Assembly: GCA_039683415.1 (NCBI GenBank)
Contig: JBDKRL010000010.1
Location: 1 to 61,717 of the forward strand
Source: Clostridiaceae bacterium
GTDB lineage: Bacteria > Bacillota > Clostridia > Christensenellales > CAG-138
DNA length: 61,717 nt
Direction: 5' to 3'
The first letter of the stretch is position 1. Each line of letters begins with the position of its first letter. Below, in pieces: positions 39,521 through 43,805 of this stretch. The position numbers were made by a program, and so were the translations under genes. A model generated the notes under the pieces. It worked only from the letters and a program-made list of their open reading frames with translations, had not been told where the DNA came from and ran no database searches.

Positions 39521-40407
39521 TGGATTGGGACTGCGCGGACGATTATTCCGCCGGTACGGCTTCGGATATGCCCGCCGAACGGCTGGCGGACACGGCGGAC
39601 GGCTGGGCGGAAACAGACCTGCCCGGCGCGGAGGAAGCGGATCTGCCGCCGGAAGGGGATTCGGCCTGGGACTGCGCGAACAGTTCCGCCGGTGCGGCGT
39701 CGGATATGCCCACCGAACGGCTGGCGGACACGGCGGACGGTTGGGCGGAAACAGATCTGCCCGGCGCGGCGGAAGCGGATCTGCCGCCGGAAGGGGATTC
39801 GGTCTGGGACTGCGCGGACAGCACCGCGAAAGCCGCAGGAGATGCCGCGGATGATACGGGGGATGCTCTTTGGGATACGCCGCGGACGGAAGCCGAGAAG
39901 GCCGCCGATTATATCCGCTCCTTCAGTGGATTTGAAAAAGCCGCCGACTATGTCGAGCGGCACTACGCGGGAGATGAGTTCGTTCCCGGAGACGTGATTT
40001 CCATTACGACTCGAAATCAGGAACTGGAGGGAGGCACGAGCAATCAGGGCGTCCCCTTTTCTCGCCGAGAAGTCAAGCTGGATGACGGTCTGGTGTTGGA
40101 GGGCGTTTTTCCGGAGTTCAATTCGCTCCATCATGTGGAACTGGGCGACGCGGCGAAGGACATGAACCGTTATCAGCAGTTTTCCGCCTGCAAAGCCGAC
40201 TTTCAGGATCACCTGAGCGACAATCGAAACGCTCTTGAGAAACTCACGCTGGGGGACATGGAGCGTCTGAGCGAATCGAACCAAGCCACTCCAAGAGGAT
40301 ACACCTGGGACCATAATCCGGAAACGGGAGCCTTCGACCTTGTTCCATCCGGTGTGCACAGGACAACTGGGCATACGGGCGGCAACGCTCTTTATGGAAA
40401 AAGCTGA
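39517..40407 (+). CDS. Acidic tandem-repeat protein with C-terminal HNH/EndoVII-fold nuclease-like domain (WHH/AHH/SHH toxin-class signature)
   Basis: ATGA start/stop overlap with the HerA-like gene. C-terminal ...YTWDHNPETGAFDLVPSGVHRTTGHTGGN fits the [W/A/S]HH...LV..H...HTGG pattern of HNH-type toxin nuclease domains. The N-terminus has 2.3 copies of a 47-aa acidic repeat. Confidence 0.5.
   Translation: MMDWDCADDYSAGTASDMPAERLADTADGWAETDLPGAEEADLPPEGDSAWDCANSSAGAASDMPTERLADTADGWAETDLPGAAEADLPPEGDSVWDCADSTAKAAGDAADDTGDALWDTPRTEAEKAADYIRSFSGFEKAADYVERHYAGDEFVPGDVISITTRNQELEGGTSNQGVPFSRREVKLDDGLVLEGVFPEFNSLHHVELGDAAKDMNRYQQFSACKADFQDHLSDNRNALEKLTLGDMERLSESNQATPRGYTWDHNPETGAFDLVPSGVHRTTGHTGGNALYGKS
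39527..39811 (+). repeat. 141-bp tandem direct repeat x2 (plus partial third copy) inside a CDS
   Basis: GACTGCGCGGAC...GGGGATTCGG(C/T)CTGG repeated at ~92% identity. It leaves both strands open; the antisense ORF 39484-40374 is an artefact of this. Confidence 0.8.
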
Positions 40408-40553
40408 GCGTACAGCGGCTGGGAATTGCTGAAAGTCACCGAAACCGAATACGGAGATTCGCGCATTCTGCGCGTTGATATATCCGTAAGAAAAGCGCGT
40501 GTGCGCTACGCATAGGCGCGGCCGGCCAAACCGGTGGAAATGGAGGAGTTTCG

Positions 40554-41150
40554 ATGAGCGAGTTGCTGTTTCCCAGCATTGTGACGAATATAGACGGACA
40601 CGATCAAACTACAAATCTTATAAGCTACGATCTGACCAAGAACCGTACGGTTTACATCATCGGCGAAATTGATGATTTCATGGCGACATCCGTACTTTCG
40701 CAGTTTCGCTATCTGGCGGCAAAGTCGGGCGACGATATCACCGTCGTCATCAACAGCCCCGGCGGCTCTGTCACGGCGGGTATGGCGATACTGGACGGCA
40801 TGAAGACTGGGTTCCGCTGCGAAATGGCAACGTTTGCAACGGGCGTCGCTGCCAGCATGGGCGCGCTGCTCCTTGCCGCGGGCACGAAGGGCAAGCGGCA
40901 TGCATCCGCATCAACGGAGATTATGATTCACCAGCCGCTCGGCGGGGTGCAAGGGCAGGCGACGGACATTTCGCTCGTTGCGGAGCATATTCAAACGGTC
41001 AAGCGCAGACTGGCGGACAGACTGGCCGACTATTGCAAAAAGGAGCGGGACGAACTGCTGCGCGATATGGAGCGGGACTACTGGCTCACGGCCGAAGAAG
41101 CGAAGGCGTATGGGCTGATCGACCTCGTCGGTTACCCGGAGCAGTTTTAA
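40554..41150 (+). CDS. clpP: ATP-dependent Clp protease proteolytic subunit (ClpP paralog)
   Basis: INSPGGSVTAGMAI, GVAASMGALLLAAG (catalytic Ser), IMIHQPLGGVQGQATDI (His), MERDYWLTAEEAKAYGLID (Asp). The near-canonical ClpP sequence runs end to end. Confidence 0.85.
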   Translation: MSELLFPSIVTNIDGHDQTTNLISYDLTKNRTVYIIGEIDDFMATSVLSQFRYLAAKSGDDITVVINSPGGSVTAGMAILDGMKTGFRCEMATFATGVAASMGALLLAAGTKGKRHASASTEIMIHQPLGGVQGQATDISLVAEHIQTVKRRLADRLADYCKKERDELLRDMERDYWLTAEEAKAYGLIDLVGYPEQF

Positions 41151-41166
41151 GCGGAAGGAATGCGAT

Positions 41167-41946
41167 ATGATATCTGGTCAAAACAATAAACTGATTGGAC
41201 TTACGCCGCTGAACGAAGCATTGGAAAGCATATGCGATAACGGAGCTGTGTATTCGCTCAGCTATGCCGCTCCGCCGCATTTTCTGCTCAATCTGGGGCC
41301 TGGCGATGGACAGAGCACCGTGGCAAGACATATTGCGCGCGTCTATCAACAGGCGAAGATACGCCGCTTCGGCGGTCTGGACGCATATTTGGAATTTTCG
41401 CTGGACGGTACCATGGTGCAGATGAAGCGGGTGTTTGGGGATATCAAATCCTGCGCGGTCTTTACAAACGAGTATGAAGGAATCGTCGCGCTGGATATTT
41501 CCGCGCTGGCCGCGCACATCAACGAGGCGCAGACGGAGTATTTCCTGCGCGAGATCAGGAAGACTTCGTCCTTTGCGACATGCGTATTTTTTGCCGTGTC
41601 CGGTACGCAGCGGAGCGTGGCTCGACTGACGGCAAAGCTATGCGAGGTTGTGGAAAACGTGCAGACGATAACGGTTATGCCATATACAAGGCGTGAACTC
41701 GCGGCGATCATCGAAGAGAAAATCAATGCGCGCGGTATAGAAATTGAGGAGCCTTCAGCTTTTCGGGAACGTTTGGCCGCGCAGCTTGCCGAAGGGGAGA
41801 TCCATACAGCCAAGCAGGCGGTCAGCCTCGCAGAGAAAATAATGCAGCACGTGCGGCTGGAAGGAGCGACTGCGGCTATAGGACGAAAAGAGATGGAAAC
41901 CGCTTTCTCCTGCGACGTTGAATGGGAAGGGTGTGTGAACCGATGA
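41167..41946 (+). CDS. Degenerate AAA+-like (pseudo-ATPase) protein
   Basis: Walker-A-like FLLNLGPGDGQSTVARHIA lacks the Lys. Walker-B-like VALDISAL lacks the acidic pair. Sensor-1-like FFAVSGT. Lies 16 nt after clpP, and its stop overlaps the next start (ATGA). Confidence 0.45.
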   Translation: MISGQNNKLIGLTPLNEALESICDNGAVYSLSYAAPPHFLLNLGPGDGQSTVARHIARVYQQAKIRRFGGLDAYLEFSLDGTMVQMKRVFGDIKSCAVFTNEYEGIVALDISALAAHINEAQTEYFLREIRKTSSFATCVFFAVSGTQRSVARLTAKLCEVVENVQTITVMPYTRRELAAIIEEKINARGIEIEEPSAFRERLAAQLAEGEIHTAKQAVSLAEKIMQHVRLEGATAAIGRKEMETAFSCDVEWEGCVNR

Positions 41947-43805
41947 GAAGCGACCGCTGGGCATATCCATTAGAGATTAAGGAAGTGCTGACGCTGGAAG
42001 AGGCGTGCGGCAACGCCGGCGGACAGGTTCTCTATAGGGAGAACAACCAAAACTGGGTTTACGGCGGCGAAGGGCACACGATTATTCTCGGCGTGAGCGG
42101 AAGCGGAAAAAGCAGGCGCGGAACGCTGCCCATGGTACGCTCGCTTATATGGGCGGAGGAGTCGTTTTCCGTTCTCGATCCAAAAGGCGAAATCTATGAC
42201 GAGACGGTTGAATATGCGCGGAGGCAGGGATTTGAAGTGCATGTGGTCAACCTTCGGCACATCCGAGAAAGCGAACGCTGGAATCCGCTGACGCTTCCGT
42301 ATGAACTGGGCAGGTCCGATTCACCGGAAAACAAACAGATATCTGCGGAGATGATTGACGAGCTGGCGCATTCGATCTATAAAAAGAACGACAGTTCCGA
42401 TCCGTTTTGGACGGATTCCGCGCGTTCGCTGTTTATAGGCGCCGTATATGCGCTCATGGAATACGCAAAACCGGAGCAGGTTACGATGGCCGGCGTATAT
42501 CAGCTGATTGTTAACGGGGAAAAGCGCTGCGGACCCGTTTCGCTCCTCAAAGCGTTCGTGGACGAGATGCCGGAAAATTCAGTCACATCCATGCTACTGC
42601 AAAGCTACCTGAATACTGCTTCGGATACACGCGGCGGCATTCGATCGACTTTTTTAGAGGGCATCTCTACCTTCACCCGCAGCGAAGGAGTCTTGGAATT
42701 TTTGGTCGCGGACGATTTGAAGATCGGAGCGCTGGACGGCGCGCGAAAGACGGGCGTCTATATCATTCTTCCCGATGAGAACCCGATTTTCGACCGTCTG
42801 GCGGGCGTGCTGATGAGCCAACTGATGTCGCATTATATTCGCCTTGCACAGAACACGCTTGGCGGAAGGCTTCCCATCCGCATGAACGTCTGCCTTGAGG
42901 AACTCGGGAATGTCGGCGGAGCGCTCGCTAACCTGCCGCACCTGATGTCTGCGGGGCGCTCCCGAAACATTCGCTGCCAACTCGTACTGCAGTCTCTTTC
43001 CCAACTGACCGATATCTACGGCGCGAGCAGCGCGACGACCATCCTCAGCAATGCGGACGTGATCGTGGCTTACCGTACGAATCATTGGGATACGCTCACG
43101 GAGCTTTCCCGCAAGTGCGGCGAGCGTGAAGTGGATTACGGCGCGCATACCTCCCGCGAGGCGCTTATCACGCAAAGCCAGATAGGATCCATGCAGACGG
43201 GTCAAGCGCTCGTTATGGTTTCCGGCCGTTTAAAATTCATCACTTGTCTGCCAGATTACAGCGATATGTATCCGCGCGTGGAGTATCGGGAGCCTGTACG
43301 CAATAATCGCCAATACACGCCGCCGCCGGAAGCGATCTGTGTGGCGGCAATGATTCAGGAACTGAAAGCGAAAAAAGAGAGCCTTGAGGACGCAAAAGAC
43401 GAGGAGAAATCAGAAGACGAGCCCGGTGAACGAGTTTCCTTTTTTGATCTGATGCTCGCGGAACTTAACTGCAACAACGACGACCCCAAAGCGCCAAAAT
43501 CTGCGATTCAAGAGCGAATTGACGCAAGGATGGCGGAATTGCGCGAAGAAAGACTTGAAAAAAGCGGAAAGAAAGCGAACAAAAGGAAAGGGGGGTATGA
43601 TGTGATGATTCTGCACGATGGGGGGAACAGGAGCGCGGTGATCAATGCACTGATCGCTACCAGGTCTGCGACTCGCGCACAAGCGTTGATCCATGCATCT
43701 GATTTGCCTATAGAGATACATCTCAAATCGAAAAGAACAGCGGATAAGCTGAAAAAATCGATTTCCCTGGCTGGAGGAACGGCTATCGTATATCCTGCTG
43801 AGTAA
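41943..43805 (+). CDS. TraG/TraD/VirD4-family coupling-protein-like ATPase, second paralog (intact Walker A, no TM helices)
   Basis: ILGVSGSGKSRRGTLP Walker A, Walker B CLEELGNVG, and a TraG-D_C-like RSRNIRCQLVLQSLSQL. Same architecture as the 25702-27354 protein. Confidence 0.7.
   Translation: MRSDRWAYPLEIKEVLTLEEACGNAGGQVLYRENNQNWVYGGEGHTIILGVSGSGKSRRGTLPMVRSLIWAEESFSVLDPKGEIYDETVEYARRQGFEVHVVNLRHIRESERWNPLTLPYELGRSDSPENKQISAEMIDELAHSIYKKNDSSDPFWTDSARSLFIGAVYALMEYAKPEQVTMAGVYQLIVNGEKRCGPVSLLKAFVDEMPENSVTSMLLQSYLNTASDTRGGIRSTFLEGISTFTRSEGVLEFLVADDLKIGALDGARKTGVYIILPDENPIFDRLAGVLMSQLMSHYIRLAQNTLGGRLPIRMNVCLEELGNVGGALANLPHLMSAGRSRNIRCQLVLQSLSQLTDIYGASSATTILSNADVIVAYRTNHWDTLTELSRKCGEREVDYGAHTSREALITQSQIGSMQTGQALVMVSGRLKFITCLPDYSDMYPRVEYREPVRNNRQYTPPPEAICVAAMIQELKAKKESLEDAKDEEKSEDEPGERVSFFDLMLAELNCNNDDPKAPKSAIQERIDARMAELREERLEKSGKKANKRKGGYDVMILHDGGNRSAVINALIATRSATRAQALIHASDLPIEIHLKSKRTADKLKKSISLAGGTAIVYPAE

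Follow-up and report, generated by a model that had tools for sequence, protein, structure and literature searches.

The window analysed here is an entire 61.7-kb contig (61,717 nucleotides; JBDKRL010000010.1) from the metagenome-assembled genome of a 'Clostridiaceae bacterium', and the analysis of this genome was confined to that contig, which carries one ClpP gene and no ClpX gene. The subject of this study is a run of three genes in its right half, which encode a protease of the ClpP type, a degenerate AAA+ protein that we call mid, and a soluble VirD4/TraG-like ATPase that we call VirD4b. The initial annotation of the sequence had treated the first two genes as a pair. They belong in fact to a three-gene cassette: among 103 loci collected around the AAA-like gene, 101 have ClpP immediately upstream of mid and 99 have a VirD4-like gene immediately downstream of it. 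The misses are contig ends, artefacts in the calling of open reading frames (ORFs) or one chimeric contig; on the gene map of L017 the order ClpP, mid, VirD4b is intact, and L016, an apparent exception, does encode ClpP. The gaps between the cassette genes are mostly between -4 and +17 nt. In the window the start codon of mid lies 16 nt past the ClpP stop codon, as the initial annotation had stated, and is preceded by its own ribosome-binding site, GGAAGGA. The nearest relatives of the window ClpP (55-94% identity) were inspected on seven independent contigs, and there the order is always ClpP, a protein of about 255 amino acids without a Pfam match, and a VirD4-like gene. Pairwise identities of the three cassette proteins, compared over 23 complete cassettes, correlate with each other (r = 0.81-0.86), which fits inheritance of the cassette as a unit, and their mean values are 60% for ClpP, 57% for the core of the VirD4-like protein and 38% for the AAA-like protein. 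ClpP, the dead AAA+ protein and VirD4b constitute a conserved, co-inherited three-gene cassette located in accessory islands of gut Clostridia.

The 103 loci were grouped into 34 clusters at 85% identity, and one lineage by itself, L086, contributes 34 of them. The locus scan worked with a 20-sequence subset, the complete 114-sequence alignment of the AAA-like family being too diverse for it. A word-indexed search returned only 6 relatives of the AAA-like protein; when 1.84 billion representatives were scanned in full with HMMER, 322 were obtained at E <= 1e-3, nearly all of them 240-266 amino acids long. No relative of the AAA-like gene was detected among 72,556 plasmids, 50,697 phages and 2.9 million viral contigs. 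Pfam, NCBIfam, PADLOC and PHROGs hold no model for the three-gene cassette, and full-text literature searches did not find the set of ClpP, dead AAA+ and VirD4-like genes described. Promoter and terminator scans around the cassette gave signals no better than those of shuffled sequences, and neither a tRNA nor an Rfam match is present in the window.

The ClpP of the window matches Pfam CLP_protease (peptidase family S14) with 195.8 bits over residues 20-192, the gathering score being 20.2, aligns end to end with solved ClpPs (E about 1e-45) and is about 50% identical to canonical ClpPs. The Ser of GxAASMG, the His of IHQP and the Asp of ERD are all in position. Clade-wide counts were taken either from 29 cassette ClpPs or from the 120 closest database relatives of the window ClpP: the catalytic residues are invariant in all 29 of the former, and among the latter Ser and His are kept in 120 of 120 and Asp in 119. 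The initial description of this protein as essentially canonical nevertheless goes too far. First, the window ClpP stays below the cut-off of the housekeeping equivalog TIGR00493 (188.0 against 308.6), as do eight further clade members (202-217), and the same is seen with the subfamily model NF001368 (197.6 and 216-226 against 249); ClpP of S. aureus, used as a control, passes TIGR00493 with 341.6. Second, both termini and the positions of the hydrophobic docking pocket (H-pocket) are substituted throughout the clade. Judged by these scores and substitutions, the cassette ClpP is a distinct clade and not the housekeeping copy.

The strong Pfam match and the matches to head proteases in PHROGs are what one would also expect if a housekeeping clpP had come to lie here by chance, or if the gene encoded the head-maturation protease of a prophage, and to these two readings we attach almost no probability. 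A housekeeping gene would have to be reconciled with scores below the cut-offs that canonical ClpP passes, with the lack of clpX, tig or lon near the gene in the annotation of the window, with a clade that was accompanied by the cassette in every context examined and was never seen otherwise, and with an island whose place differs between relatives. For the prophage protease, the score against the model of ClpP-related head-maturation proteases, NF045542, is 92 bits against a cut-off of 120 (the ClpP models give 188-198), there are no capsid, portal or terminase genes, and the partner gene has no relatives in phages or viral contigs; the initial annotation had also denied that the protein is a prohead protease, and in this it was right. 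Both candidates were rejected on these cut-off failures, on the cassette context and on the lack of phage genes and phage relatives.

The substitutions that set the clade apart are, in the numbering of mature E. coli ClpP, R12G (119/120), E8T, R15H/Q, Y20I/V and R22D/E, and further L48R, F49Y (113/120), M92T, L114T/S and L189G; the docking-pocket positions compared are those that we take from the ClpP literature on the E. coli protein. Residual features of the pocket are an aromatic residue in position 112 and Tyr60, the latter in 11 of the 29 cassette copies. At the C-terminus, 107 of the 120 clade ClpPs carry the motif x[VI]G[FY]P, which is absent from canonical ClpPs. Where these changes fall, the surfaces that contact ClpX and ClpC are altered. 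It has been described that both termini of ClpP take part in partner binding, that the N-terminal loop touches the unfoldase's pore-2 loops, and that in certain ClpP paralogs the protein's own C-terminus blocks the docking pocket (PMC9823225). The C-terminus of the window ClpP, LVGYPEQF (41121-41150), contains a tripeptide that resembles the IGF type, in the place where the C-terminus borders the docking pocket.

The initial annotation had ascribed an AAA+-like core to the second protein of the cassette, and structure prediction bears this out. The AlphaFold2 model calculated from the 114-sequence alignment (an earlier input of 6 sequences gave a poor model, pLDDT 62) consists of an AAA+ base and lid with a pLDDT of 93.6 and a pTM of 0.90. 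In Foldseek it matches RuvB, CbbX, clamp-loader subunits and FtsH with probability 1.0, and RFC and HslU are among its fold matches; because of the model and these matches we regard the base-plus-lid fold of mid as genuinely AAA+. Sequence searches of Pfam, PADLOC, PHROGs and the PDB gave no match, and the only, weak, hits to models of the NCBIfam type are holA (20.5 bits) and the P-loop region of SpoVK (13.7 bits). The idea that the ORF might prove to be a known unrelated family thus found no backing in these databases, and the searches support the view that mid belongs to no described family.

The P-loop of the window protein reads GPGDGQST, and the consensus of the family is L-D-x-G-N-G-[Q/R]-[T/S]-T. 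As had been noticed at the outset, the Walker A Lys is missing: among 114 sequences its position is occupied by Gln in 51 and by Arg in 50, with no Lys among the residues tallied. The accompanying claim that Walker B lacks its acidic residues was mistaken: Asp110, the last residue of the Walker B strand (residues 106-110), is present in 97 of 114 sequences, and in the D-[I/V]-[S/T] that it opens the catalytic Glu alone is missing. The loop between the strand 74-78 and the helix 83-95 is LDGT in the window and LDG[T/S] in the consensus and contains no aromatic residue; in the model, pore loop 1 would thus be vestigial. Owing to the family-wide loss of the Walker A Lys and of the catalytic Glu, and to the pore loop of four residues, mid looks like a non-catalytic adaptor and not like an unfoldase, which agrees with the pseudo-ATPase adaptor proposed originally. 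In L017, a protein of 976 amino acids with multiple AAA and AAA_lid_6 modules is encoded two genes past the cassette (9354-12284) and was caught by the profile of mid; AAA_lid_6 is the lid type of CbbX/SpoVK-like AAA+ proteins, and it points to the origin of the mid family.

Three columns of the 114-sequence alignment, and no others, are conserved in at least 90% of the sequences: Met1, Gly11 and Gly48 of the P-loop. In the window Gly11 is the centre of the tripeptide IGL (residues 10-12, 41194-41202). The strict pattern (L/I/V)-G-(F/L) is present at the aligned residues in 71 of 114 sequences, or in 86 when Met is permitted, compared with a background of 21 among 1004 windows of 25 residues taken elsewhere in these proteins. 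Clp ATPases use a tripeptide of this kind, IGL in ClpA and IGF or VGF in ClpX, for docking into ClpP's H-pockets (PMC8745299). The conserved N-terminal tripeptide strengthens the idea of an adaptor; as it is N-terminal and does not lie on an internal loop, the parallel with Clp docking is no more than suggestive. No conserved motif similar to (L/I/V)-G-(F/L) was found in VirD4b.

The tripeptide and the pocket also bear on the main alternative to the interpretation developed below, according to which the cassette ClpP is a paralog of the ClpP2 type that works within the host Clp system, either in mixed tetradecamers with the housekeeping ClpP or driven by the host's ClpX or ClpC. The dead AAA+ protein would then be a plug or regulator of the docking pockets, and VirD4b would have a separate, DNA-related task. 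ClpP1/ClpP2 heterocomplexes and C-termini that occlude the pocket are documented (PMC9823225), the cassette ClpP has kept about half of its residues in common with canonical ClpPs together with part of the pocket (the aromatic residue 112 and, in some copies, Tyr60), and an inactive AAA+ protein bearing the tripeptide could compete with the loops of ClpX. Such a role would leave unexplained the strict linkage of the three genes, their translational coupling and the co-divergence with VirD4b, and it has to face the clade-wide replacement of those residues of the N-terminal loop that serve recognition by ClpX. On balance we hold it to be improbable.

VirD4b matches Pfam T4SS-DNA_transf with 133 bits, TraG-D_C with 76 and TrwB_AAD_bind with 54, and its best match in NCBIfam is the conjugal-transfer family CD1115 (213 against a cut-off of 250). 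The representatives have conserved Walker A (GxSGSGKS), DE and RSR motifs, and with these intact VirD4b would be the obvious energy source of the cassette. Its solubility was assessed by a simple 19-residue hydropathy scan of 24 representatives. None of them shows a membrane segment: the maximum is at most 1.5 in 23 of the 24 and 1.89 in L016, and for the window protein, whose Walker A begins at residue 57, it is 1.07. In the 21 representatives where the pattern matched, Walker A begins between residues 45 and 71.

These profile matches, the affinity to CD1115 and the integrase remnant nearby could be taken to mean that the cassette is an accessory of a conjugative element, in which the VirD4-like proteins are coupling proteins of a type IV secretion system (T4SS) and ClpP processes transfer proteins. 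We consider this highly improbable in view of the missing membrane anchor (24 of 24 representatives), the sub-cut-off score for CD1115, the absence of relatives on plasmids and the fact that relaxase, VirB4 or other T4SS genes are found neither in the window nor in the seven neighbourhoods annotated with Pfam. A conjugative coupling protein was rejected as a candidate on the grounds of the soluble VirD4b, the CD1115 score and the lack of T4SS genes in the annotated contexts.

In most copies of VirD4b, a conserved helix (...RIDxKIAELEAEE) and then a charged linker lead to a C-terminal domain of about 70 residues. The Pfam model Ribosomal_L12 is passed by this domain in one copy, at 44 bits, and a profile of 13 sequences, the window copy included, matches the C-terminal domains of bL12 in the PDB with E = 6.6e-11; altogether the bL12-like domain is present in 64 VirD4b ORFs. 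The C-terminal domain of bL12 is the part of the ribosomal stalk that recruits translation GTPases. By analogy, this suggests that the domain could serve VirD4b as a recruiting arm, possibly for EF-Tu or EF-G.

The genes upstream of the cassette, on the same strand, include the ubiquitin-like module that the initial annotation had pointed out, and an E1 ORF together with candidate E2-like, JAB-like and beta-grasp-like ORFs was recovered there (table 1). The ubiquitin-like (Ubl) candidate does not end in Gly, and so processing would be needed to expose a C-terminal Gly; this beta-grasp ORF is kept beside E1 in L021, L103 and L105. Since the listed JAB ORF overlaps the E2-like gene, its true start is probably further downstream. 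The operon that runs from Ubl, E1, E2 and JAB through the transglutaminase-fold, SPFH, HerA-like and WHH genes to the cassette is found in at least four lineages (the window, L001, L021 and L024), the ClpPs of which are 62-89% identical, and this recurrence means that the association of Ubl genes and cassette is conserved in that sub-lineage. In L020 a JAB-E1 fusion adjoins the cassette in a differing arrangement, and a cassette still accompanies E1 relatives that are 49% identical (P0372 on the L021 contig).

These observations are the best arguments for regarding ClpP and the pseudo-ATPase adaptor as the two-part degradation arm of the Ubl module, that is, for a tag-and-degrade pathway resembling that of the proteasome. 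As a general account of the cassette we think this unlikely. On the one hand, most cassette lineages are without Ubl and E1 genes. On the other hand, close E1 relatives (48-50% identity) occur in operons that have no adjacent cassette (L103, L105 and L106): in L103 (4537-15023) the Ubl/E1/E2/JAB module is accompanied by an Endonuclease_NS_2 nuclease, a VirD4-like protein of 437 amino acids and an M48 metallopeptidase, and in L105 and L106 the Ubl-type operon stops after SPFH and the zinc-ribbon protein, after which unrelated genes follow. Moreover, this account leaves out the invariant VirD4-like ATPase, and a recognisable Ubl-binding element is present in neither of the two cassette proteins. 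The connection between tagging and ClpP drawn originally is thus upheld for the lineages with the recurrent operon and not for the cassette at large. A link of the cassette with ubiquitin-like tagging is possible and not obligatory, being optional in both directions, and it is only for the Ubl-type operons (the window, L001, L021, L024 and, rearranged, L020) that one may reasonably suppose tagged substrates to be handed to the cassette ClpP.

Two other proteases were seen in loci where the Ubl module has no adjacent cassette. In L103 a different protease, M48, occupies the place of ClpP. In L105 a third, divergent kind of ClpP paralog (20768-21271; IQSVGG, HQPMGEVSGRASD) lies 6 kb downstream of the truncated Ubl-type operon, with unrelated genes between the two.

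Table 1. Features of the cassette and its surroundings in the window (positions in the 61,717-nucleotide contig)
Feature	Position	Strand	Evidence or remark
Second soluble VirD4-like ATPase, VirD4a	25606..27354	+	atypical Walker A GSTGSLKT
TPR/RNPP-like protein, partner of VirD4a	27399..28442	+	in 42/103 loci
Beta-grasp, ubiquitin-like candidate, 105 aa, end ...EDGPVAAC	29643..29960	+	fold judged by eye
Small protein with transmembrane segment, Pro-rich stretch and zinc ribbon	30000..30434	+	conserved within Ubl module
E1-like ThiF-family adenylyltransferase	30409..31716	+	ThiF 97.8 bits; PADLOC E1-E2 models
E2-like protein (...YPQVKP...NVFPNGHQC...)	31766..32359	+	no Pfam match; by eye
JAB-like protein	32215..33405	+	weak Pfam JAB, 17.9 bits against cut-off 25
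Transglutaminase-fold protein	33419..34369	+	commonest accessory gene near cassettes
SPFH/Band_7_1 protein with C-terminal zinc ribbon	34412..35551	+	profile match
Two membrane proteins: Pro-rich (35568-36218); zinc ribbon and transmembrane (36250-36897)	35568..36897	+	
HerA/DUF87/TraG-like ATPase, 867 aa	36917..39520	+	third FtsK-HerA-superfamily ATPase of the operon
WHH/colicin-DNase-type nuclease, duplicated acidic N-terminal segment	39517..40407	+	
ClpP of the cassette-linked clade, 198 aa	40554..41150	+	triad intact; axial loop, H-pocket positions and C-terminus remodelled
Degenerate AAA+ protein, mid, CbbX/SpoVK-like affinity	41167..41946	+	fold model, family alignment
Soluble VirD4/TraG-like ATPase, VirD4b	41922..43805	+	Walker A GVSGSGKS, DE, RSR; 25-nt overlap with mid
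bL12-like C-terminal domain of VirD4b, residues 557-627	43590..43805	+	profile match
Tyrosine recombinase remnant, 72 aa	44099..44317	+	Pfam Phage_integrase, weak, E = 0.001

The genes located 5' of the cassette vary by lineage. VirD4a and its TPR partner stand immediately before the cassette in L086 (34 loci) and L041; a few genes are inserted between them and the cassette in L044 and L095, and 13 in the window; in L020 the two genes are in divergent orientation. VirD4a, which has retained its DE and RSR motifs, has in its Walker A a Leu instead of the Gly before the Lys in five of six lineages and a Lys in L086. A conserved protein of about 470 amino acids without a Pfam match is encoded directly upstream of VirD4a in L086 (5035-6456), L044, L095 and L041 and may be a further core component; L096, in which VirD4a was not detected, has an ORF of similar size. 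The upstream genes of L008, L016, L019 and L035 encode a vWA protein, PP2C, a kinase, two small proteins, a TraG/DUF87 ATPase and a transglutaminase-fold protein; those of the window, L001, L021 and L024 encode Ubl, E1, E2, JAB, transglutaminase-fold and SPFH proteins, two membrane proteins, a HerA-like ATPase and a WHH nuclease; and those of L006 encode vWA, DUF1810, Tubulin_2 and PARG. In several cassette lineages the upstream proteins are without any assignment. Near other copies of the cassette there are insertion sequence (IS) elements, a reverse transcriptase, type I restriction-modification, HEPN and Kiwa genes. In L044 a protein of 1059 amino acids from the FtsK/SpoIIIE family is encoded just downstream of the cassette (13157-16336) and adds to the number of FtsK-HerA-superfamily ATPases in these islands.

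Two segments of the window, 33458-43801 and 6873-14456, were compared with L001, a relative at about 80% nucleotide identity, and the island is 76-80% identical to that of L001. In L001 the island abuts a sugar-transport (sugar-ABC) cluster, and in the window the same cluster lies about 10 kb from the other end of the island; this difference in placement implies that the island or its surroundings moved between relatives. The 72-residue recombinase fragment just past the cassette is probably a decayed integrase, and the flanks of the island in the window are ordinary metabolic genes. Taken together, the islands that carry the cassette look like conflict or defence islands.

What could this set of genes do? 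Our preferred interpretation, in which belief and doubt are about evenly balanced, is that the cassette is a dedicated accessory ATP-dependent proteolytic module in variable islands of gut Clostridia. The analysis shows the features of sequence and fold, the order of the genes, their co-divergence, the changing neighbourhoods and the absence from the phage and plasmid collections; that the proteins form a complex, how they share the work and what they degrade is inferred. ClpP would be the active peptidase, and because it differs in axial loops and docking pockets from the ClpPs served by ClpX and ClpC, we propose that it uses partners of its own. The dead AAA+ protein, which would be able neither to hydrolyse ATP nor to grip a polypeptide, could dock on ClpP through its N-terminal (L/I/V)-G-(F/L) and act as a gate-opener and coupling adaptor. 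Energy and substrate selection would be provided by VirD4b, all catalytic motifs of which are intact, and its flexible bL12-like C-terminal domain may act as the recruiting arm. The variable upstream genes would provide sensing, tagging or effector functions and determine when the module fires and on which targets.

Several points weigh against this interpretation. The tripeptide of mid lies in an N-terminal segment beside a well-ordered helix, whereas in ClpX and ClpA it is borne by a long loop that protrudes; a motif of three residues is weak evidence by itself, and the H-pocket positions are less hydrophobic in the clade, so that canonical docking of a tripeptide may not apply. VirD4-type coupling proteins are receptors and translocases of secretion systems for DNA and protein substrates, and we know of no ATPase of the FtsK-HerA family that feeds ClpP. 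The cassette ClpP could pair instead with the ClpX or ClpC of the host or with its housekeeping ClpP. A role in defence is suggested by the neighbourhood alone, and ClpP, the dead AAA+ protein and VirD4b have no match in PADLOC-DB 2.0; in the rest of the operon PADLOC matches the HerA-like protein, E1 and, weakly, mad8.

A bolder version of the dedicated module may also be considered, in which ClpP is driven by the FtsK-HerA ring ATPase VirD4b with the dead AAA+ protein, which would have kept nothing but the tripeptide for docking on ClpP, as coupler, forming a portable 'shredder' for plug-in sensing or tagging modules directed against mobile elements. We regard this version as doubtful, and the same doubt applies to the assignment of ubiquitin-like conjugation, kinase/phosphatase switches and others as its plug-in modules. 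If it were true, the Ubl-type operons would represent a pathway from a ubiquitin-like tag to a protease in Firmicutes, and the substrates drawn in by the bL12-like arm might be translation GTPases.

All ClpPs known to us work with AAA+ unfoldases, namely ClpX, ClpA, ClpC and ClpE. If one clade of ClpP is tied instead to a dead AAA+ protein and a VirD4-type ATPase, this would add to the means by which compartmental proteases are known to be powered, and the Ubl-type operons, if the hypothesis on tagging is true, would be a second bacterial example of a possible tag-and-degrade pathway beside the Pup-proteasome. The cassette is unannotated yet recurrent in human-gut Clostridia, and the genes around it hint at involvement in conflict with mobile elements. 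Its parts come from known superfamilies; what would be new is a Clp-type protease with an unprecedented set of partners.

The peculiarity of this set becomes clear when it is compared with known systems. With ClpXP, ClpAP and ClpCP the cassette shares a ClpP with Ser, His and Asp beside a protein of AAA+ fold that carries the (L/I/V)-G-(F/L) tripeptide. The AAA+ protein of the cassette differs from theirs in being dead and in having neither a pore loop, nor a zinc-binding or N-domain, nor a long IGF loop; the contact surfaces of its ClpP have diverged, and the invariant third partner is a non-AAA+ ATPase of the FtsK-HerA superfamily. The ClpP1/ClpP2 systems of Chlamydia, Pseudomonas, Listeria and Mycobacterium resemble the cassette in that a ClpP with altered termini changes unfoldase binding (PMC9823225), but they use ClpX or ClpC, whereas the cassette ClpP, encoded on an island of variable content, is tied to the dead AAA+ protein and VirD4b. 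Type IV coupling proteins (VirD4, TraG, TrwB; CD1115) share with VirD4b two domains, the nucleotide-binding and the all-alpha one, as well as conserved Walker A, Walker B and Arg motifs; unlike them, VirD4b lacks a membrane anchor, is not encoded near T4SS or relaxase genes, ends in a bL12-like C-terminus and is coupled to ClpP and a dead AAA+ protein. Inactive AAA+ subunits such as delta and delta-prime of the clamp loader or FtsHi of chloroplasts share rings with active AAA+ paralogs, whereas the active ATPase of the cassette comes from another superfamily, and mid is not a member of their families at the sequence level.

The bacterial Ubl operons (Bil, Bub and CBASS Cap2/Cap3) resemble the window in that E1, E2-like, JAB and Ubl-like genes, some of them candidates in the window, stand in one operon, and with the Pup-proteasome the tagging hypothesis shares the principle that a tag leads to a compartmental protease, although Pup uses Mpa and the 20S proteasome. 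In contrast to these systems, the link between tag and protease is optional in the cassette islands; ClpP is nowhere mentioned in the Bub preprints searched or in the eLife 2020 paper on conflict systems. The parts of type VII (ESX) secretion systems include an FtsK-like EccC, a CbbX-like EccA, the serine protease MycP, the ubiquitin-fold EsaB/YukD and nuclease toxins. The cassette islands may be said to resemble this list by analogy, but no component is orthologous: the protease is ClpP and not a subtilisin, the ATPase is VirD4-like and not EccC, and WXG100 proteins and a membrane core are lacking.

Some features of the genes next to the cassette should be mentioned. In the 146 nt between the WHH nuclease and ClpP the window has no ORF of the size of an immunity gene, whereas L024 and L022 carry a small ORF there. 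The acidic segment of the nuclease is encoded by a 138-nt tandem duplication in the 5' part of the gene (39546-39821; 2.0 copies, 94% identical). Tandem repeats of 42 nt and 9 nt are also present at 36050-36160, in the part of the first membrane-protein gene that encodes the Pro-rich tail (TRETAPLPR...).

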